This document shows, piece after piece, positions 10 through 64,000 of a stretch of DNA of 64,000 nt. This DNA comes from a virus. Taxonomy: Duplodnaviria > Caudoviricetes. The DNA lies in IMG/VR virus record IMGVR_UViG_3300037424_001585, positions 3,952-67,951 of that record; one strand, written 5' to 3'. Each line of letters starts with the position of its first letter. The stretch's first letter is position 1. The notes under the pieces were generated by a model that saw nothing but the letters and a program-made list of their open reading frames with translations, searched no databases and had not been told where the DNA came from. Position numbers and translations under genes: made by a program.

Positions 10-1794
10 ATGCCCGCAGGCTTCTGCCCCGTGCATGGGTGGTGGCGGGAAGGGCAGGCGGATGCCTATGAAGCGGTGGCCTATGGGGAAGGCACGGTCC
101 CTGGTCTTGCTCCCGGCATGATTGATTGTTTTGTGGGGAACCCCTTTGACACCGTCTTCGACAGCGCGGCGCGCCGTGGCTCGATTCATTGGTGTACCTA
201 CGGGCGCCTCGTTCCTGCCAGCATCTTCCGCGAGAAGTTCGGGCACATCCACGGGGTGAAAAATCTCCAGGGCACCACCAAGATTCCTTCCGCCGCGCTC
301 TTCCAGCGCATCGCGCAGGACTGGCGTCTGGGCGACATTGGGATTCATGGGAGCGCGGTCGTGGACATCCGCCGTGGCTATGCCGAGAGCGCGGACGAGA
401 TGATGGTGGTGCTCTGCCAGGAGATACTTCCCGGCGTCACCGCTGAGTACCCCGAAGGCCGCTTGCAGATTGTGGGGATTCCGGGGGATGTGGACTTGCG
501 GCGCGGCCGAGGGAGCCCGCGCGGGGACGGGATCGTGGTGCATGATCTCCCGCTGCCCGCAGGCGACTTCTCGTGGAGCCTCTTCTACTCGCATCACCGG
601 GGTGATGATGTCCTCGGCAAACCGTGGGTGGAAGACCTCGATCCGATCCAACTCGATTTGAACATCGCGCTCTCGAACCGCTGGGAGCACCTCATCAAGA
701 TGAAAGAGGCGCCGATTGTCGGACCAGGCGGCGCGCTCGCCGATGACATGCTTGATATCGGTGGGTACAACTACATCGAGGTGGAGCCCACGGTGGGGAC
801 GTGGCGCCCGCGTGTCATGGAGTGGCCGCAGGCCGTCCTCGCCGGGCTTACGCGCGAGTGTGATGAGAAGCGCCGAGCGCTCTACACCATCGGAGGATAC
901 AACGCCGCCTCGCGCGGGGAGGCTCCCGGCTCTCGCACTCCGTACCGCGCGCTGGTGGTCATGCAGCAAGCGGACAGTTCGATTCACGGCCCGGTGAACC
1001 AGCGCTTCCGGGAATCTGCGTGCGATTTCATGGGGCGGTGCTGGAAGCAGATGAAGACCTATGGCAACGTGCCGTGGCTCATCGACATCACGGGGAGTCA
1101 GTACGCACATCTCGTGGAGCCCTACATCAGCAACGCACAGCTTTCCGAGCGCCCCCCACGGTACAAGCTCGTGAACGCGTTCGGCCCGAGTCCTGAGCTA
1201 CGCGCTCAGGAAGTGCTGGAGTTGATGAAGCTCAAGGGCGCGGACGGCAAGGTCTTCCTCACAACGGATGAAGCGAAACAACAGTACCCGGATATCACCC
1301 TCTTCGATAACACGACCGATCCAAAGGCGGTGCAGCGGCGCCGGGCGCGCACGGTGGCCTCGGCCATTCATACCCTTGCCCAACAGGTCCGCGTACAGGG
1401 AGTGCCGGAGCAAGGGATTCCCCCTGTACAGGGCGTGAACCTGATGGACAAGGACGTGCAGCAAGCGGCGTTCTACATCTTCGGGGTGATCGAAACCAAG
1501 TACCCACGTTTGCGGGACGATGATCTCCAAGCGCACCTCGATACTCTCTCTGAAATCGCACAGGACGAAACCGCTGACCCGCTTGCCCGACTCCCGGCGA
1601 TCCGTCGTGAGGGGCTCTTCTACGAATGGCAAGCCATGCAGGCCGGAGTGATGCCGACGCAGGCGACACCCCAAGGTCCTGCCCCACGCGCCGACAGCCT
1701 CGGTCCCGGCCGGACGAACCGGCCCGATCGCCTTGGGACTGCCCGCGCACGACCTGACGCCGCCACCGGCCGCGTCCAAGGAGGTATGGTATGA
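10..1794 (+). CDS. portal protein (frame open to window edge, probably 5'-truncated)
   Basis: 594-aa ORF with no stop back to position 1; directly precedes scaffold and capsid; helical content and low-complexity C-terminal tail typical of podovirus portals. Mainly a synteny call. Confidence 0.7.
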   Translation: MPAGFCPVHGWWREGQADAYEAVAYGEGTVPGLAPGMIDCFVGNPFDTVFDSAARRGSIHWCTYGRLVPASIFREKFGHIHGVKNLQGTTKIPSAALFQRIAQDWRLGDIGIHGSAVVDIRRGYAESADEMMVVLCQEILPGVTAEYPEGRLQIVGIPGDVDLRRGRGSPRGDGIVVHDLPLPAGDFSWSLFYSHHRGDDVLGKPWVEDLDPIQLDLNIALSNRWEHLIKMKEAPIVGPGGALADDMLDIGGYNYIEVEPTVGTWRPRVMEWPQAVLAGLTRECDEKRRALYTIGGYNAASRGEAPGSRTPYRALVVMQQADSSIHGPVNQRFRESACDFMGRCWKQMKTYGNVPWLIDITGSQYAHLVEPYISNAQLSERPPRYKLVNAFGPSPELRAQEVLELMKLKGADGKVFLTTDEAKQQYPDITLFDNTTDPKAVQRRRARTVASAIHTLAQQVRVQGVPEQGIPPVQGVNLMDKDVQQAAFYIFGVIETKYPRLRDDDLQAHLDTLSEIAQDETADPLARLPAIRREGLFYEWQAMQAGVMPTQATPQGPAPRADSLGPGRTNRPDRLGTARARPDAATGRVQGGMV

Positions 1795-3191: not shown

Positions 3192-4520
3192 ATGGCGCTC
3201 GGTAGCCAGGCCACAACGGCTGAACTCATATCCGAACTCACTGGGCTGACGCACGACATCTTCGTCGGTCAGGTGCAGAAGAACGTGCGGCGGGAATCTG
3301 CCGCCGCCATGCTCTTCCAAGAGGCCGGTGCGGGCCAGTACCACATGGAAGGGCAGAACATGGTGTTCGCCACTGATCTGAACACGATCGGCGGCGGGAT
3401 GGCCTCCAGCGGTAACCTGCCCGACCATGTCGGGTTGGATGCCGTGCAGGGCAAGATCACCCCGATTCGCCGGTACCGCCGGATCGCGTTGGACAATCTG
3501 GTCGAGTTGCGAGCTAGCGGGCCGGGCGCGTTCGAGAACTTGGGGACGCGCATCGTCGATCTCCTGTGGGAATCGTGGAAGAACATGGAGATTCGACACG
3601 CGATTGGGGCGTCCTCGACGCTCATCGGGACTGTGGAGAGCCGTACCTCCTCCACCGCGTTTGTTATCAAGGACGGGTACGGGAACGTTGGGACCAACCC
3701 CACCATCAACCTGATCGAGGGCATGCCGATCGCCTGGTGGGACATTACCGCGACCGCCGCCATTGACGGCGCGGCCAAGATCAGCACCGCGACCCCGATC
3801 AATCACACCACGCGGGCGATCACGGTGGACTCGGCGACGACCTGGGAGCCCGGCGACATCCTCGCGGCGGGTGACCTGATCTACGCCTGCACCACGAACA
3901 ACATCAGCACGGATTACTTCGAGGCCGAGCGCAACCTCGGCCCGAACGGGCTCGGCACGATCGTGGACCCGAGTGCAGGTTCGACCACGGTGTTCAACAT
4001 CTCCGAGACCACGAACCCCCGGTGGAAGCCGTTCCGTAAGGATTCGGTGACCTTCGACCACCTCGAACTCACTGAGCACTGGTTGCAGCTTGGCCAGAAG
4101 CGCGGCTTCGAGGTGACGCCGGGCAGCGATGTGGTTATCACCTTCCCCTCCGCACGGGCGCAACTCGCGCGGAGCTTGATCGGCTTCCAGCAGCAGACGC
4201 AGTTGGGTGGGACGCTCACGGGTGGCTGGACGGGTCTCACCGTGAACGGCATCCCCATCAAGGCGGACGGCTTCTTCTACCACAATGTGTGCATGACCCT
4301 GCACACGCCGTCCCTGTACCGCGTGACCCTCGGTGGGGAAGCAGATTTCAAGGCCGAGGATGGCTCGCAGTGGAGCCGGATCGCGGACTTCGATGGGAAG
4401 GAAGCGTACGTCGGGGAGTACATGAACTTCTTCTGCACGCACCGGGGAGCGAATGGTGCGCTGACAGGGATCACGACGGACGTGACCGACGCGGACTTTG
4501 AACCGGTGCCAAATTATTAG
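3192..4520 (+). CDS. major capsid protein (HK97 fold)
   Basis: 442 aa, GGGAG RBS, strongly biased codons, follows scaffold; sequence character of P22-coat-like capsids. Confidence 0.8.
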   Translation: MALGSQATTAELISELTGLTHDIFVGQVQKNVRRESAAAMLFQEAGAGQYHMEGQNMVFATDLNTIGGGMASSGNLPDHVGLDAVQGKITPIRRYRRIALDNLVELRASGPGAFENLGTRIVDLLWESWKNMEIRHAIGASSTLIGTVESRTSSTAFVIKDGYGNVGTNPTINLIEGMPIAWWDITATAAIDGAAKISTATPINHTTRAITVDSATTWEPGDILAAGDLIYACTTNNISTDYFEAERNLGPNGLGTIVDPSAGSTTVFNISETTNPRWKPFRKDSVTFDHLELTEHWLQLGQKRGFEVTPGSDVVITFPSARAQLARSLIGFQQQTQLGGTLTGGWTGLTVNGIPIKADGFFYHNVCMTLHTPSLYRVTLGGEADFKAEDGSQWSRIADFDGKEAYVGEYMNFFCTHRGANGALTGITTDVTDADFEPVPNY

Positions 4521-29498: not shown

Positions 29499-32483
29499 TC
29501 ACTCCTTCCATGTGGACATGGAGCCCCACGCACCCCCCACCGTCCCGATCTTGGCCTCGGTCGGGATGTGCAACCGCCGCCCGCGCACCACGAAGGGCGC
29601 TTCCATCACACGCTTGGTGAAGCGCAGAGACTCCGGGAGGTATTGGGGAAGAGCTTGCCAATCGAGTTCATCATGGTTCTGGTGGAACAACTCGATCTCG
29701 CCTTGTCGATCAAGCTCGTCATGCACCATAATGATCGCCTGGTTCATCAACCACGCGACGGTGCTGGAGGGGAAGAAGGCAAGCGCATCCTTCAACCGAT
29801 TGTGCTCATCAGGATCACGGAGCGGGCGGCAGTATCCGAAACAGTTCTGCACGATCCCGCGATTGTCGGTGATGGCCTGCGCGACCTCCTGCCACCACGT
29901 CTTCAGAGGATGGAGGCTGTAGAGCACATCTTGGAAGTGCTGCACTTCTTTCTCCGTGGTCCGCTGGCCATGGATCGCGTAGTCCTTGTTGAAGGTCACC
30001 ATCGCCGTGCGGGCGGACCCGGAGTAGATCGAGTTTCCTGTAAGCGTGATCGTTCGACCCTGACGCATGACCCAAAAGCCTGTTGTGGTGCGCGGGCACC
30101 AAACCGCTTGCGATCTGCGCGCTGTGACCTTCAGCTTTTGTGCCGTGACCCACGGCTTCCCCCACCGCACGTTGCGGTTCCTAACTCCTGTATATGGCGA
30201 GACTACTCCAGCGGATTCGCTGGGATAGTGCCCAGAGAGAAAGATGGCGAGCTTGATAGCATCTAACGTTTCTCCCTCGTTCTGTGAACAGACCTGCTTT
30301 CCTTTTGAGAGCCAGCCTTCCGCTCCGTGGAAACCCTTGAGCAAGCGATTGCGCTGAATACGAGTCATCGCTAAAACGATCTGTTCTTTCGTGAGGTAGT
30401 CTCCACGCACCCGTTCCCACAGCCGTTGGGAGTATGCCCCTCGAAGGATGAATGTCGTTAGTGAGCGCTCTCTGCCGCCGTATCGCCGTTGTCGATGAAC
30501 ATGGTGCGGAATCCGCTTGAGCAGGAAGCGTAGACGCTTCAGCCCAGCCGGTTTTGCTTGGTACAATCGAAGTTCGCACTTCACGCGCTTCCCGCCAGCT
30601 TGTGCTGTTGCTCCGACATACTTACCACGAAGGATTGAACCGTCACCCCATAACCAGCCGAGCAATTCCGCCTCCAACGGCGTGATGTCGAGACTCTGCT
30701 CCTGCTCGAAAACCGCTGTGCGAATGATCTCATCACGCATGCAGTTGAGGGTTGCCGCTGTAACTACATGGGGAAACTTGTTTCGACGTTCATGGTGGTA
30801 GCGAGTTCCGGCCCAGCGATGGTTCGGCGTGCATTCAACAGCGAATCGTGTGTTTGCTACGCGGACAACAGGGGCCTTTTGATAATGGTAGACCTTGGTG
30901 ACGGTGTCCCACACAAGATTTGCGCCGTTGTATCCAACCACCATCTCGCCAACACGGATTTCATCATGCCGCTTCCACCCTGTGGACGTGAGAATCTCTG
31001 TTCGTTCGGGCACGCAGAGGAACCCTAGGTTCTTGCTCGTGACGTACACCTTGGGGTGCAGGGTTTTCACCTCGCTCGCCTTGCAGGAGAGATGGAAAGC
31101 TTCTTTCGCGTGTGTGCCGTGCGCGCTCTCCCCCTTGAGCATCCGGTCGATCCATTCGGTGTCGCCTGCGTAGGCCCAGCACAAGAACATCTCCGCACCA
31201 GCGTAATCCCGGCTTGCCAATTGGAATCCCTCATCTGCGCACATCACCCCGCGCGTGTCGTAGAGCGGGTCCATCGTGGCGATCTTGTTCGCCTGATTCT
31301 GGAGATTCGTGTTTCCGGTGACGCAGATACGTCCGTGCCTACGGACAAGGAAGTATGAGGTCTCAGTAGTCACACAGTACACCAAGCCACAGTGCGCCGA
31401 CCGTTGGAAGTGTTTCGCCTCTGACCAAAGAGCGCTACGCGGCTTGATGGCCACAGTGTACAGAGGTTGCGCAGTGTGCTCACCATAGCTCCCACGATTC
31501 CGATTGGCGCAGACGCGGATGCTTGCTGAGTATCCGGTTAGATGCGCAGTTGTCGCTATCCATTCCGCATTCTCACGGAGCACGGTGAAGTACATCCAAC
31601 TGCGGCTGCGACGTGTCGCGTCCCAGAATTGTGTCTCTTCAACAAACGCACGAAGCGCAGGGAGCGGCCACGAAAGCAGCCATGCCCCATATTGTTTCTC
31701 TCGACCGAGCCACCGCAGCATGAACTGCGCGCCGTCCGGGAGATAAAACCGCGTGTATCCCTTGGGTACTCCGCCGCTTGTCGTCCACCACTTCCACCCG
31801 GCTTCATTCAACAAGCGCTTGAGACGGCGCACCTTTCGACGCTTTTTGAATTGCCAGCGCAGCGAGCGGAGGCTGCCCTTACAGAATGATCCATCGGCCT
31901 GAAATGCGGCAAGCAGTCTCGCCTCAGTGACGGAGATTTCTGCCACACCGCCTTGATACCGTCCGCTTACCGGAAGCAGACAAGCACGGAAGTGCGCAAC
32001 GGTATCGGCACGATCCTCACGCCAGTCTCTATCTTTGGCGTTGCGGTATGGGACACGGTGACTCGGCGTGTACGCTAGTTGATGGAACCACGATTTCGCC
32101 TCAAGGAGTTCCCCTGTGAAATGCGCTCGGGTCAACGGCGCATCCTGGCACCACGAGAGCGTATCGTCCGGGGACCATTGCAGAACAGTGGTCGGGCCTT
32201 TAAGATGATCGAATCTTGTCCATCCTGTAGGGGTGAGTACCTCTGCATCCCCAGTTAAGCACATGGCTTCTTCCGTGATTCCTCCTGAAGAGGCCAAGCG
32301 CATGTTCGTGGTCGCGACGGAGAGATTGGTATGCACGCGTCCATCGCTGCCGGGACGAAGCCGGTTCAACATCCCGTGGATCGTCCGGTCCCGCTTCCCG
32401 CGCTGGATCGGGGTGAGGACTTCGCGCACCAACTGCTTGCGCGCGGGAAGGGAGGCGAGATGGTCACGGAGGGTGGTGGTCAT
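29499..32483 (-). CDS. polA: DNA polymerase family A, C-terminal (thumb-fingers-palm) part, with two inteins
   Basis: DGRVHT..., RLASS..(intein)TNLQN, motif A DYAGAE, motif B KNLGFL(intein)SIYS, motif C HDEL; ATG overlaps the upstream stop. Confidence 0.9.
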   Translation of the reverse strand: MTTTLRDHLASLPARKQLVREVLTPIQRGKRDRTIHGMLNRLRPGSDGRVHTNLSVATTNMRLASSGGITEEAMCLTGDAEVLTPTGWTRFDHLKGPTTVLQWSPDDTLSWCQDAPLTRAHFTGELLEAKSWFHQLAYTPSHRVPYRNAKDRDWREDRADTVAHFRACLLPVSGRYQGGVAEISVTEARLLAAFQADGSFCKGSLRSLRWQFKKRRKVRRLKRLLNEAGWKWWTTSGGVPKGYTRFYLPDGAQFMLRWLGREKQYGAWLLSWPLPALRAFVEETQFWDATRRSRSWMYFTVLRENAEWIATTAHLTGYSASIRVCANRNRGSYGEHTAQPLYTVAIKPRSALWSEAKHFQRSAHCGLVYCVTTETSYFLVRRHGRICVTGNTNLQNQANKIATMDPLYDTRGVMCADEGFQLASRDYAGAEMFLCWAYAGDTEWIDRMLKGESAHGTHAKEAFHLSCKASEVKTLHPKVYVTSKNLGFLCVPERTEILTSTGWKRHDEIRVGEMVVGYNGANLVWDTVTKVYHYQKAPVVRVANTRFAVECTPNHRWAGTRYHHERRNKFPHVVTAATLNCMRDEIIRTAVFEQEQSLDITPLEAELLGWLWGDGSILRGKYVGATAQAGGKRVKCELRLYQAKPAGLKRLRFLLKRIPHHVHRQRRYGGRERSLTTFILRGAYSQRLWERVRGDYLTKEQIVLAMTRIQRNRLLKGFHGAEGWLSKGKQVCSQNEGETLDAIKLAIFLSGHYPSESAGVVSPYTGVRNRNVRWGKPWVTAQKLKVTARRSQAVWCPRTTTGFWVMRQGRTITLTGNSIYSGSARTAMVTFNKDYAIHGQRTTEKEVQHFQDVLYSLHPLKTWWQEVAQAITDNRGIVQNCFGYCRPLRDPDEHNRLKDALAFFPSSTVAWLMNQAIIMVHDELDRQGEIELFHQNHDELDWQALPQYLPESLRFTKRVMEAPFVVRGRRLHIPTEAKIGTVGGAWGSMSTWKE
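30033..31016 (-). mobile_element. intein 2 (328 aa) with LAGLIDADG endonuclease, inserted in PolA motif B
   Basis: Starts CVPERTEILTSTGW; block B CTPNHRW; LLGWLWGDG and LLKGFHGAEG; ends CPRTTTGFWVMRQGRTITLTGN followed by Ser. Confidence 0.9.
31311..32261 (-). mobile_element. intein 1 (317 aa) with LAGLIDADG-type endonuclease, inserted before TNLQN
   Basis: Starts CLTGDAEVLTPTGW; TPSHRV; LLAAFQADG; ends CVTTETSYFLVRRHGRICVTGN followed by Thr. Confidence 0.9.
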
Positions 32484-32638
32484 CCTAGCACGCGCGCCGA
32501 GACAACGCACGTTGTCCCATCCCCGAGATGTACGATGATCTCCTCAAGGTGATGGTACGTAGCGCGCTCAGTATCCTTCACTTCTGGTCGCGCGCGAAGA
32601 CTCTCCTCCAGCAAGGTGAGTATGTCGTGCTTGTCCAC
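32480..32638 (-). CDS. hypothetical protein (52 aa) coupled to PolA-C start
   Basis: GAGGTGA RBS, GTG start; its stop overlaps the ATG at 32483. Confidence 0.5.
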   Translation of the reverse strand: MDKHDILTLLEESLRARPEVKDTERATYHHLEEIIVHLGDGTTCVVSARVLG

Positions 32639-40050: not shown

Positions 40051-40051
40051 G

Positions 40052-40124
40052 AGCACTCGGAGGGACTCGAACCCTCGACCTGCGCGTTACGAATGCGCTG
40101 CTCTGCCTACTGAGCTACGAGTGC
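40052..40124 (-). tRNA. trnT: tRNA-Thr (anticodon CGU), CCA not encoded
   Basis: Acceptor GCACTCG/CGAGTGC, D arm TAGCTCAGTAGGCAGAGC, anticodon loop TT-CGT-AA, T arm GAGGG-TTCGAGT-CCCTC. Confidence 0.95.
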
Positions 40125-51706: not shown

Positions 51707-51901
51707 TCACCCCCCTTCCCCTTCCGCCACCGGCACCAACGTGGTCACCGGCTTGATCGTGTACCCCGGCTGTTGCACACCCCCGAACCATTGCGGGAGT
51801 TCGGTCACCAGCTTCCCCACCGTGAGCTTGGGATTCGTGATGTCCACTTCGATCACGAGGAAGAAGCGGGCGGTGCGGATAACTTTGGCTTTCACTGCCA
51901 T
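51707..51901 (-). CDS. hypothetical protein
   Basis: GGAGGGG RBS; 64 aa. Confidence 0.55.
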   Translation of the reverse strand: MAVKAKVIRTARFFLVIEVDITNPKLTVGKLVTELPQWFGGVQQPGYTIKPVTTLVPVAEGEGG

Positions 51902-56823: not shown

Positions 56824-56971
56824 ACCTTCACCCCCTCGCGCTGTGCCCACAAGTACAACGATTCATCGTTCATGATCCAGTCCTCCCGGTCCTCGTCCGT
56901 CAGCCGCCCGAGATTGGAGCATGCGGCCCGTATTCGTTTGGTCAATCTCCACGGTATAGGGTGAGACAAGC

Positions 56972-57211: not shown

Positions 57212-57271
57212 TGGGTTATCCCTCCACGGTATAGGGTTAGGCAAAGAAGAAAACACCAAGAGAAGGGGCAG

Positions 57272-57409
57272 TCAGTGCGTAATGACGGCCATTTGAATGG
57301 CTCGGGTAAGACGGTCAGCGAAATCGGTGTAAACGTTTTCGGTCCATGCGTGTTCTAAGGCTTCGATGACTGAGTGATATTGCCACTTTGTTAATTGCAG
57401 CGTTTTCAT
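57272..57409 (-). CDS. 45-aa peptide, tandem paralogue A
   Basis: MKTLQLTKWQYHSVIEALEHAWTENVYTDFADRLTRAIQMAVITH. Confidence 0.55.
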   Translation of the reverse strand: MKTLQLTKWQYHSVIEALEHAWTENVYTDFADRLTRAIQMAVITH

Positions 57410-57434: not shown

Positions 57435-57596
57435 TTAGAGGTACGAACGCTCGCCACCAGAAGAAAAGATTACGGCCATTTGAATAGCTCGGTCGTGGCG
57501 GAATGAAAACGAGGTGTAAACGTATCCGCTCCATGCGTGTTCTAATGCTTTGAGGACTGCGCGATATTGCCACGTTGTCAGTCTGAGCGTTTCCAT
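57435..57596 (-). CDS. 53-aa peptide, tandem paralogue B (not in ORF track)
   Basis: METLRLTTWQYRAVLKALEHAWSGYVYTSFSFRHDRAIQMAVIFSSGGERSYL. Confidence 0.55.
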   Translation of the reverse strand: METLRLTTWQYRAVLKALEHAWSGYVYTSFSFRHDRAIQMAVIFSSGGERSYL

Positions 57597-58792: not shown

Positions 58793-59080
58793 TTACTCGA
58801 CTAGGACGTACAGCTCGCCGGGGTCCGTCACCCGGAACGCCTCATACACCCCAAACTTGACGGGTATCTCTACCCGTGCCGGGTCCCGCTTCCACGTTTT
58901 GACCCGTCCGTTGCGGCGGACGTTCGCCATCTTTCCATGCTGGTCCTGGCAGAAGAGGACAGGATTATGGAAGCTTTCCGGCCACGCCTTCACCTCATCC
59001 AGCGTGAGCGCGCGGTACGTTCGTAGCTCCGTGGTCTTGTGCCGGTCGCTGCGGTGCACCGCTTGGATCGTTTCTCTCAT
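58793..59080 (-). CDS. hypothetical early protein
   Basis: RRNGRVKTWKRDPARVEIPVKFG pattern. Confidence 0.6.
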   Translation of the reverse strand: MRETIQAVHRSDRHKTTELRTYRALTLDEVKAWPESFHNPVLFCQDQHGKMANVRRNGRVKTWKRDPARVEIPVKFGVYEAFRVTDPGELYVLVE

Positions 59081-59120
59081 GCGTCCCTCACTTCCACGGT
59101 TTCGGGTCCGGCTTTCATGC

Positions 59121-59330
59121 TCATTTCACCCTCTTGCATAGCTGTCTGAGGATACGCGCCGGATGCGGCCGGTACCCATTCGCCGTTCGCCGCCACGCCT
59201 TCATCGCATCCAGGCGCTTGCACCGGCGCGCTTGGATAATGCACGCCCCTCGCACCATCGTGAGCGGCGGAATCTGCCGCGTCACGGGTTCAGGTTGCGG
59301 TGCGGGATACTTGGGAAAGGTGTACTTCAC
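59121..59330 (-). CDS. hypothetical early protein
   Basis: GAGGGGGTGA RBS. Confidence 0.45.
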   Translation of the reverse strand: MKYTFPKYPAPQPEPVTRQIPPLTMVRGACIIQARRCKRLDAMKAWRRTANGYRPHPARILRQLCKRVK

Positions 59331-59584
59331 TGGCTCACCCCCTCAGAAAAGAAAAAGTGTTGCGGTGCTTGAGTGAGTACCTACCAGGATAGCGCCGCTA
59401 GTCCCTCGCTGCGCCAGTGCGAATATTCAACCGTACTCCCACCACAAGCACCACAAAATAGGGAAGAGTGGCTTTGCGCCCTACACCCCAGCGCTCGCTC
59501 TAGCGTGGCGCTTAGTGTCTCTTCCCGACAGGTTCCTGATTTCTGGGGAACCTCGCAAGTGTAAGGTGTCATCACCCCCCGCTT

Positions 59585-60060
59585 GCCCGCCCTAGGTCTC
59601 TCTACAGACCGCGTAGCCCTTCGGTGTGAGCGTAGGACATTCCGCCATCCGTACACACTCCACACCTACCGCCCCGCTTGTCGGCTGTCTCCCCTTCAGG
59701 TTCCCGGCACCTTGCACAGATTCTTTGCCAGTGTCGCTACCCTCTGGCGGGATAGTGCCCGCCATCCTCTTGCAACACCCGTTGCCGGTACTCTCCCTTA
59801 CTCGGGAGCTTGAGGGCGCCTACCCTTCCGTCGCGGGTCCGCCAGGGTCGCGGCGCATGGAGTAGGTCACTACACCCGCTCCGGGGGAACAAGAGGAGCA
59901 CTCGCCAACCGTGCCCGGACCCTTGAGGGAGCGCCGCGCTACTCGCGCTGTCCGCTCCCCACATCCCCGCTTGCGCCAGGACCGTTCCCCGCACACCTGG
60001 AAGGTTGCCTGACTCTACGCCCCGACCATAGCGCACGACCCGTGCCAGCGCCGCTAACCC
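59585..60060 (-). ncRNA. candidate large structured non-coding RNA
   Basis: No convincing ORF; at least eight hairpins identified by eye (see findings). Confidence 0.4.
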
Positions 60061-60137
60061 CTTGCATGTATGTGCGTTGGGACACTGGCATGGTCTGTGC
60101 TGAGGGCGTTTTCGCTCTTGCAGAACACAGGAAACCG

Positions 60138-60176
60138 CGCAAGCGCTTGCGTGGCAATCTGCCAGCGTGCTATCTT
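60138..60176 (+). promoter_or_regulatory. terS promoter with two dyads
   Basis: TTGCGT-18-TATCTT with TG extension; palindrome CGCAAGCGCTTGCG and TGGCA-atc-TGCCA. Confidence 0.45.
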
Positions 60177-60181
60177 AGAGC

Positions 60182-60868
60182 ATGCGAGCGAGAACCCTAG
60201 AACGCGCGGCGCGGCGAGCGATGACCCCTCCCCGTGACCCTTCCCTCCCCCCGCTTGGACGGCCCCGGAAGATTCAGACCCCTGAAGAGTTAGACGAGCG
60301 GGTGGATACGTACCTTGCCCACTGCGCCGAGGTGAGCGAGCCGGTCACCTTCTTTGGGATGATCCTTGCTTTGGGCTTTGTGAGCGCGGATGCTCTAGAC
60401 GAGTACTCGAATTACTCTACCGCATTTTCCGAGTCCGTGAAACGTGCGCGTGCCCTCATCAGCGCCAGCTACGAACGTCGCCTTGACCGTGACAAGAGTG
60501 GTCCGGTCATCGGGGGAATCTTTGCGTTGAAGAATCTGGCGGGGTGGACAGACAAGCGGGAAATTGAGTGGCGAGGGATTAGCGCCAGTATCATCCTCGA
60601 CCGGCTCACCGACGCCCAACTGGAGCGGGTGAAGCAAGGGGAACATCCGCTGGCGGTACTCGCGGAGGGGAGCGCCTTGACGGCCGCGCCCATCCCACCA
60701 GGGACCGCGCCGCTTGCCTTACTCCCTCCACCCGTGCCGGACCCGACGCCCTCCGCTCCCCTCCCCGTTGATCCGCCGCGCCGCTCCCGAGGGCGGAAGG
60801 GACCACACCCACCCACGAAGCCCACGCGGAAAACCCCACCCCCCAAGGGACCCCGGCGCGCGCGGTGA
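60182..60868 (+). CDS. terS: terminase small subunit (P22 gp3-like)
   Basis: GRPRKIQTPEEL...TFFGMILALGF...LDEY...FSESVKRAR...GGIFALKNLAGWTDKREI. Confidence 0.85.
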   Translation: MRARTLERAARRAMTPPRDPSLPPLGRPRKIQTPEELDERVDTYLAHCAEVSEPVTFFGMILALGFVSADALDEYSNYSTAFSESVKRARALISASYERRLDRDKSGPVIGGIFALKNLAGWTDKREIEWRGISASIILDRLTDAQLERVKQGEHPLAVLAEGSALTAAPIPPGTAPLALLPPPVPDPTPSAPLPVDPPRRSRGRKGPHPPTKPTRKTPPPKGPRRAR

Positions 60869-63780: not shown

Positions 63781-64000
63781 GGGGGTAAGCAGTCTTTGTT
63801 ACATTCCATCTTGCGCGTCCCCCCGGCCCTTCCCTACCTTCATCCCGTCACGCAGGGCCTCCCCTGCTCTGTCGTGATGCTGGAGACAACCCCCCCCCGT
63901 GCGCCTCTGCTCCTCTCTCAGCGCATGGGGGTTCCTGTTTGCAGAGAACCTTGCGCGCCCGCCTGCTCCATCCCTATCGTAGAGCGAACCAGGGGGAAGG

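Follow-up and report, generated by a model that had tools for sequence, protein, structure and literature searches.

A lineage-specific, gene-free divergent tract in an uncultivated sediment phage: a possible control region with an early-operon leader

The DNA analysed here, referred to below as the window, is a stretch of 64,000 nt from a 67,951-bp IMG/VR virus record, which is rated complete and represents an uncultivated, very novel sediment phage. Its genes form two arms that are read outward: the packaging and structural genes are on the plus strand, rightward from 60221, and the early and replication genes are on the minus strand, leftward from 59330. The arms are separated by an ORF-free divergent tract of 890 bp (59331-60220), which has the first early gene on one side and terS on the other. 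The block at 59585-60060, in which an earlier note had seen a candidate large structured phage RNA, is the GC-rich core (GC 0.63-0.71) of this tract; its minus strand is G-rich and carries the hairpins listed in that note. We propose, with a probability of roughly 0.4, that this block is the core, specific to this lineage, of a divergent control region with an early-operon leader, outside the known classes of large RNAs. Compared with a large structured phage RNA, a control region or leader of an ordinary kind has the higher probability. The former is unproven, because the hairpins barely exceed what the base composition yields, no RNA family matches, and relatives for comparison are missing; on balance, the assessment of such an RNA leans negative.

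The tract does not behave like coding DNA. Codon-position GC periodicity collapses from approximately 59100 to 60250, and public copies of this sequence are without any called gene from 59081 to 60220. The ORFs that can be drawn inside the tract show no codon-position periodicity (p 0.3-0.97, as compared to p <= 0.003 for the flanking genes), and none of them has a match in PHROG. Judged by the loss of periodicity, the gene calls and the absence of homologues, the block is non-coding, as the earlier note had suspected, and the non-coding stretch is even wider than the block. Tandem repeats were not found in the tract, and a search for mobile-element terminal inverted repeats returned no convincing pair.

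Two of the internal frames were considered as genes that annotation could have missed. The 57-aa frame starting with MAGTIPPEG (59592-59765) was the coding alternative offered by the earlier note itself; it has neither a homologue nor periodicity and is thus unsupported. The 99-aa frame with a GTG start (59737-60036) gave, among 1.8 billion protein representatives, a single low-complexity, 13-stretch match, which is not credible. A weak codon-usage signal tracks first the 99-aa and then the 57-aa frame, with the frame switching at their 29-nt overlap, and the top-scoring internal ORF reaches 10.1 bits, a value equalled or exceeded in 18 of 500 shuffles. Both frames are open and slightly outscore the other frames, as would be expected of one or two unannotated small proteins. 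However, their log-likelihoods of 0.05 (99 aa) and 0.03 (57 aa) bits per codon are far below those of real genes (0.17-0.58), and the 99-aa product is rich in Gly, Arg and Pro and looks junk-like. The outcomes for coding capacity, comprising the PHROG comparison, a word-based and an exhaustive phmmer search, codon log-likelihoods, shuffles and periodicity, were without exception negative or marginal. Without periodicity, homologues or a Shine-Dalgarno sequence at a workable distance, the protein-coding reading of the tract was rejected, and the existence of such small proteins is extremely improbable.

The left boundary of the tract is set by a 69-aa, Arg/Lys-rich ORF on the minus strand (ORF69, 59121-59330), which public pipelines have missed. 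It is the first early gene, starts with GTG at 59330, and is preceded by the Shine-Dalgarno sequence GAGGGGG (59344-59338), which ends 7 nt before the start. We take ORF69 to be real on the basis of its periodicity (p 0.003) and codon score (0.18 per codon), its Shine-Dalgarno sequence, and two observations on related sequences. The JGI copy L003 has a 21-nt in-frame deletion in this ORF (59224-59244; L003 407/408), which is its sole difference across 4.6 kb, and a 151-nt contig from another sediment run contains an approximately 87% identical relative of ORF69 (59198-59339, 18 differences). Nothing apart from this contig points to a relative that is close and yet diverged; it was all that contigs from four sequencing runs contributed, and no RNA run was among the runs listed for the stretch. 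With ORF69 accepted as a gene, the ORF-free tract is bounded as 59331-60220.

Upstream of ORF69, two stems followed by U-tracts lie in the minus-strand orientation. The first is a branched hairpin (59451-59526) with a closing helix of 8 bp (GGGAAGAG/CTCTTCCC), after which comes UAUUUUGUGG; it is terminator-like, its closing stem (59526-59461) is followed by the U-tract UAUUUUGU, and its local z of -3.0 is the strongest of the area. The second (59345-59456) is a 12-bp stem (59456-59445/59371-59360) that encloses 73 nt and, via the U-rich UUUUUCUUUUCU, leads into the ribosome-binding site of ORF69. These two stems (59526-59345) are the strongest local structures of the area and lie outside the range considered in the earlier note. 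A scan for consensus terminators from 58900 to 60400 found none, and canonical intrinsic termination was rejected as a description of either stem, one being branched and the other enclosing 73 nt. Elsewhere in the phage, a canonical U-tract terminator with a 12-bp GC-rich stem is present at 61746-61720 on the minus strand. It closes a minus-strand cassette (63683-61840), which is headed by a near-consensus sigma-70 promoter, TTGACA-18-TAGTAT (10/12 matches; 63780-63751, minus strand). From this promoter and terminator it appears that the host polymerase reads classical signals. In the tract, a search for sigma-70-like minus-strand promoters with at least 7 of 12 matches returned none.

Other recurrent elements were observed along the genome. 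Two paralogous small ORFs on the minus strand, MKTLQLTKWQY... and METLRLTTWQY... (57272-57409 and 57435-57596), are located in a stretch of lower GC content (0.54). The element CCCTATACCGTGGAG occurs at 57222-57236 and 56947-56961 on the minus strand, in both cases ahead of neighbouring gene starts, and the tract holds a look-alike, CCCTATTTTGTGG, at 59451-59463. Further, the 10-mer GTGGGGAAGC is present seven times, at 4333, 5884, 14099 and 22331 on the plus strand and at 51820, 34383 and 16485 on the minus strand. Several of its copies are at stop/start junctions (for example TGA-GTG-GGG-AAG), and it may be a recurrent gene-start phrase.

The right boundary of the tract is the gene for the small terminase subunit, terS (60221-60868, plus strand, 215 aa; PF16677 GP3_package, 9.7e-09; phrog_606), the start of which was set at 60221 from the database protein P0001. 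It is preceded by a promoter-like site, TTGCGT-N18-TATCTT (60147-60176, plus strand). Of the more general pattern TTGCGY-N18-TAYCNT, the window contains three copies and no more (60147-60176, 63811-63840 and 63951-63980), and all three are on the plus strand, intergenic and upstream of plus-strand genes. The -35 element of the terS site is covered by a 20-bp palindrome with the halves CCGCGCAAGC and GCTTGCGTGG (60135-60154), which is a candidate operator. The 5'-UTR of terS additionally contains the pair GAGAAC-CC-TAGAAC (60190-60203, plus strand). Pairs of the GAGAAC/TAGAAC type precede terS by 20-50 nt, both here and, as read by eye, in the short spacers of two 50%-identical relatives, L005 (4957-5050) and L006 (842-1131). 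They may be a conserved regulator site or a terminase site of this phage family.

Based on these elements, we infer a division of labour along the tract. The right edge (60135-60203) holds the putative terS promoter, a motif that the phage uses three times, together with a candidate palindromic operator. In the left 250 nt there are two long U-tract stems and, after them, a strong Shine-Dalgarno sequence that leads into the small basic gene at the head of the early operon. The approximately 600 nt between the edges would be transcribed leftward, on the minus strand, and form a long untranslated leader for these early genes. The excess of G over C on the minus strand persists through the tract and stops near 60100-60250, which fits a minus-strand transcription unit starting there. 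Such a leader would work via primary-sequence sites, namely four copies of the 9-mer CAAGCGGGG in the same orientation, and via a few stable hairpins. Sites and hairpins would together determine what share of transcription gets past the terminator-like stems and reaches the early genes.

The recurrence of CAAGCGGGG is the most significant statistic we obtained. The region 59577-60257 contains four copies, all on the minus strand, and four same-strand copies of any 9-mer in 970 nt were reached in only 5 of 2000 shuffles (p ~0.003). Copy 1 (60249-60257) is located within codons 10-12 of terS, where the terS strand reads CCCCGCTTG. Copies 2 (59965-59973) and 3 (59672-59680) precede the two largest hairpins of the block, the former by 4 nt (a hairpin with a GAGUA pentaloop) and the latter by 5 nt (a 17-bp stem), and copy 4 is at 59577-59585. 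Two more exact copies are found inside distant genes (41281 and 43533), and the one-mismatch variants follow the coding strand. A dispersed 12-13-mer of the stoperator type was searched for genome-wide and was not found.

The position of these copies raises the question of packaging. The terminases of SPP1, P1 and lambda recognise repeated short sites in or beside their own gene, and here four short repeats adjoin terS, one of them inside it, although binding is putative. Thus, the tract could be an array acting at the DNA level, in which the CCCCGCTTG copies serve as putative TerS sites (pac), or it could hold the physical end of the genome. The repeat is significant and has one orientation; three of the CCCCGCTTG copies precede terS, and the fourth falls within the first codons of the gene. 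However, the spacings of 95, 293 and 284 bp (680 bp in total) are far wider than in known pac or cosB regions, exact copies are also present in distant genes, and the tract is missing from relatives whose TerS is related. In addition, P22-type gp3 terminases, the Pfam family matched here, use a site within the gene. This packaging explanation is very doubtful.

The folding of the block was compared with chance expectation. All nine stems quoted in the earlier note (9/9) were found in the minus strand of 59585-60060. A hairpin density beyond chance is only weakly borne out. There is a mild excess of hairpins with stems of at least 4-5 bp, the observed number being reached by 10-53 of 300 shuffles (p 0.03-0.18), but stems of at least 6 bp show no surplus over shuffles. 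The minimum free energy of the 476-nt minus strand has a z of -1.83 or -2.59, depending on which of two shuffle sets is used, while that of the plus strand is -0.66. Since 14 coding segments of the same phage span z values from -2.9 to +2.5, the -1.83 of the block sits at approximately the 7th percentile. Inside the block, 120-nt windows have z values from +0.9 to -2.3 and are not outliers against the phage background, and 200-nt minus-strand windows, evaluated by a whole-genome composition regression, range from +1.5 to -1.1, with none among the genome extremes. The comparison with shuffles that the earlier note had proposed as a check thus yielded a modest signal at 476 nt and nothing exceptional locally. 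In folding models, structure beyond chance is weakly indicated, marginal, and confined to this one scale. The note itself had cautioned that high GC content produces hairpins by chance, and most of the remaining hairpin density is to be expected from a GC content of 66% and the G-rich composition of the strand. Further, in the half of the block covered by 59575-59800, G exceeds C by approximately 2:1 on the minus strand, which is a poor pairing basis for an ornate fold.

At the scale of 476 nt, the ensemble diversity is 41.8, as compared to 118 +/- 35 in shuffles, and it is below that of all 96 phage segments of the same size (96/96). The modelled 476-nt fold is thus better defined than that of any other genome segment, which a plain spacer need not be. 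The signal is strand-specific and relies on G-U pairs and long-range helices. Folding of all 890 nt leaves the outer 20-bp helix seen in the 476-nt model with a P of just 0.02 and lowers the two helices inside it to approximately 0.6, and only four local hairpins remain above P 0.9. The most robust hairpin (59926-59960, minus strand) consists of 8 + 4 bp with the GAGUA pentaloop at 59940-59944, and its P is 0.93-0.99 even in the 890-nt context. A 5-bp hairpin with a GAGUAA loop (59793-59808, minus strand) and a perfect 7-bp hairpin, TGGCGGG/CCCGCCA (59745-59764, minus strand), both have P 0.97. The 17-bp bulged stem with G-U pairs (59623-59666, minus strand) has P 0.93/0.82/0.93 in the 476-nt fold and approximately 0.5 in the full context.

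The earlier note had also pointed to a recurring GAGUA loop and to frequent GCAAG and TCAAG. GAGTA is indeed present four times in the block, with 0.55 expected, and GCAAG seven times, with 1.4 expected, but TGCAAG and YCAAG are common all along the coding strand and were dropped as regulatory motifs for this reason. Hairpins with GNRNA loops are common by chance, 229 being present within the window, and the loops of the block are unlike the GNRA/UNCG-rich set of large ribozyme-like RNAs.

Searches for RNA families did not place the block in any of them. Infernal cmscan of the whole window with 4227 Rfam families at the gathering score found only a tRNA-Thr at 40052-40124 and left the block unmatched; ARAGORN likewise reported this tRNA-Thr (40051-40124) as the only tRNA in the window. 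At E <= 10, the region 59200-60300 gave five chance-level Rfam matches with E values of 4.2-5 and bit scores far under gathering. GOLLD and ROOL, which the earlier note had named as examples of large phage RNAs, gave no covariance-model match at either threshold. Overall, no check proposed in that note yielded a result in favour of a structured RNA. Thus, the block is not GOLLD, ROOL, HEARO, OLE, raiA or another curated family of Rfam 15.

A rival explanation is a private structured RNA of approximately 480-650 nt. It would be transcribed from the minus strand, extend from approximately 60060-60100 to the U-tract that follows the 59526-59461 stem, and could act as a stand-alone RNA or as a leader in cis. 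The strand-specific fold and its low ensemble diversity, the hairpins that hold P > 0.9 whatever the context, and the two hairpins with GNRNA-type GAGUA(A) loops are in line with it, as are the terminator-like U-tract stem, positioned where the RNA would be expected to end, and the small, arginine-rich gene downstream. Against it stand the lack of an Rfam match, the context dependence of the long-range helices, local z values and hairpin counts close to background, the G>C imbalance at 59575-59800, which is ill-suited to pairing, and the lack of a detectable minus-strand promoter in the tract. Moreover, a covariance model built from the best-defined domain (116 nt) had no further match in the window, and nhmmer, blastn and this model detected no relative of the tract in 85 terS-linked loci; the syntenic relatives L005 and L006 manage with 93-289 bp. 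We consider a private structured RNA unlikely. In one version of it, which would resemble nut or put antitermination, the GAGUA hairpins would be sites for a protein or for the polymerase, with the 69-aa gene product as partner. More specifically, a private RNA of 500-650 nt could recruit, via its GAGUA hairpins and CAAGCGGGG copies, a factor (possibly the 69-aa protein) for read-through, as an antitermination leader of the N/nut or put kind that is unrelated in sequence; this is quite unlikely. BLASTP at E <= 100 gave no alignment of the 69-aa ORF with lambda N, and it has no match in Pfam, PHROG or PDB, including the N-peptide. An N-like protein was therefore rejected, the arginine-rich resemblance being mid-protein and seen by eye only.

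The relatives available for comparison are distant. The tract DNA has no similarity to 50,697 phage records (INPHARED) or 72,556 plasmids (PLSDB). An exact 33-mer was not found in IMG/VR, and a 28-mer from a neighbouring ORF was not found in JGI metagenomes. Searches of IMG/VR and metagenomes with TerS, the 594-aa protein, p95 and ORF69 returned no close relatives. The alignment search with TerS retrieved 80 IMG/VR loci and one Methylocella MAG, and the TerS relatives reach only approximately 50% identity. By these sequence comparisons the phage is far from cultured ones. Other copies of the phage were found in three assemblies (two Logan, one JGI), all of them 100% identical over the tract, so that the tract shows no variation and no sign of selection.

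Two large proteins of the phage were also compared with known ones. The 594-aa protein of the structural arm (10-1794, plus strand) has no tblastn match at E <= 1e-5 in the 50,697 phage records. For the 1003-aa replication protein (29499-32510, minus strand), residues 81-516 match regions of Mycobacterium phages at approximately 30% identity (tblastn); these are mostly annotated as DNA primase, and one as intein-containing topoisomerase-primase.

Among the relatives retrieved, L005 has kept the divergent layout with a spacer of 93 bp, and L006, which is syntenic by TerS (51%) and a 59-aa early protein (48%), has a spacer of 289 bp and also carries genes of 81 and 68 aa. In a third relative, with a 65% identical homologue of p95, three small genes upstream of this homologue take the place of the tract. 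Spacer lengths tabulated for 62 terS loci were excluded from this comparison, as the periodicity filter applied to them overlooks small genes. The DNA of the tract is thus absent from these relatives, and since the syntenic spacers comprise just 93 and 289 bp, approximately 600 bp of the tract are lineage-specific.

This comparison also bears on the possibility that the tract is decayed or recently acquired functionless DNA, left over from a small early gene or a pair of them; only the edges (promoters, operator and leader stems) would then be functional. The slot is a hypervariable small-gene region in the relatives, as seen in the third relative and in L006. Together with the faint codon signal in the 99-aa and then the 57-aa frame (10.1 bits, 18/500 shuffles) and with a minus-strand G skew like that of minus-strand genes, this is what gene decay could leave behind. 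However, codon-position periodicity is absent from these frames (p 0.3 and 0.41), and neither has a homologue or a usable ribosome-binding site. The significant 9-mer recurrence and the well-defined fold would be unexpected in junk, and 600 bp of dead DNA are seldom retained in compact phage genomes. Decay is thus improbable, and the preferred reading is still that of a control region with an early-operon leader.

If a large functional RNA did exist here, it would represent a further class of RNAs carried by phages, in a lineage almost without cultured relatives. As it is, our results are better taken as an example that calls for caution: in a phage with 62-70% GC, a long list of hairpins found by hand is in itself not evidence for an RNA gene. 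The tract is real and lineage-specific, yet ordinary in kind so far. It offers concrete leads, namely the significant 9-mer repeat beside and inside terS, a promoter motif peculiar to this phage and overlapped by a palindromic operator, and two U-tract stems ahead of a small arginine-rich gene. Taken together, they outline how an early/late switch may be built in a new group of phages.

Among known systems, large phage-associated RNAs such as GOLLD, ROOL and HEARO share with the tract the size class of 400-800 nt, the phage context and the ORF-free setting. Unlike them, the tract has no covariance-model match, no family of homologues and no local structure above background. The pacL and pacR sites of SPP1, the pac hexamers of P1 and the R sites of lambda cosB resemble the CAAGCGGGG copies in being short motifs in one orientation next to or inside the small terminase gene. 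Known arrays of this kind extend over 160-270 bp, in contrast to the 680 bp observed here, where binding is putative.

The closest functional analogy is the pL-nutL-N leader of lambda, which we regard as a lead and not as a finding. In both cases the region is at the head of the early operon, contains hairpins with GNRNA-type pentaloops, and has long stems directly ahead of a small basic first gene and its ribosome-binding site. Candidates for boxB-like elements in the tract are one GAGUA pentaloop hairpin closed by 4 bp and one GAGUAA hexaloop hairpin. Unlike the lambda leader, the tract is approximately four times longer and contains no boxA-like sequence and no identified early promoter. 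Membership in the lambda type fails wherever it was tested (N alignment, family match, boxA), and the analogy is a lead for this reason.

With respect to genome layout, the region of P_left in mycobacteriophage L5 provides another parallel. The phage described here shows no DNA similarity to the 50,697 phage records, and no 12-13-mer of the stoperator kind is dispersed through its genome, in which it differs from L5. In both phages, however, a structural arm proceeds rightward and a replication arm leftward from one non-coding region. The CAAGCGGGG copies are, like the L5 stoperators, asymmetric repeated sites in a single orientation, and the 1003-aa replication protein has its best matches, at approximately 30%, in Mycobacterium phages, which is a further likeness to L5-like siphophages.
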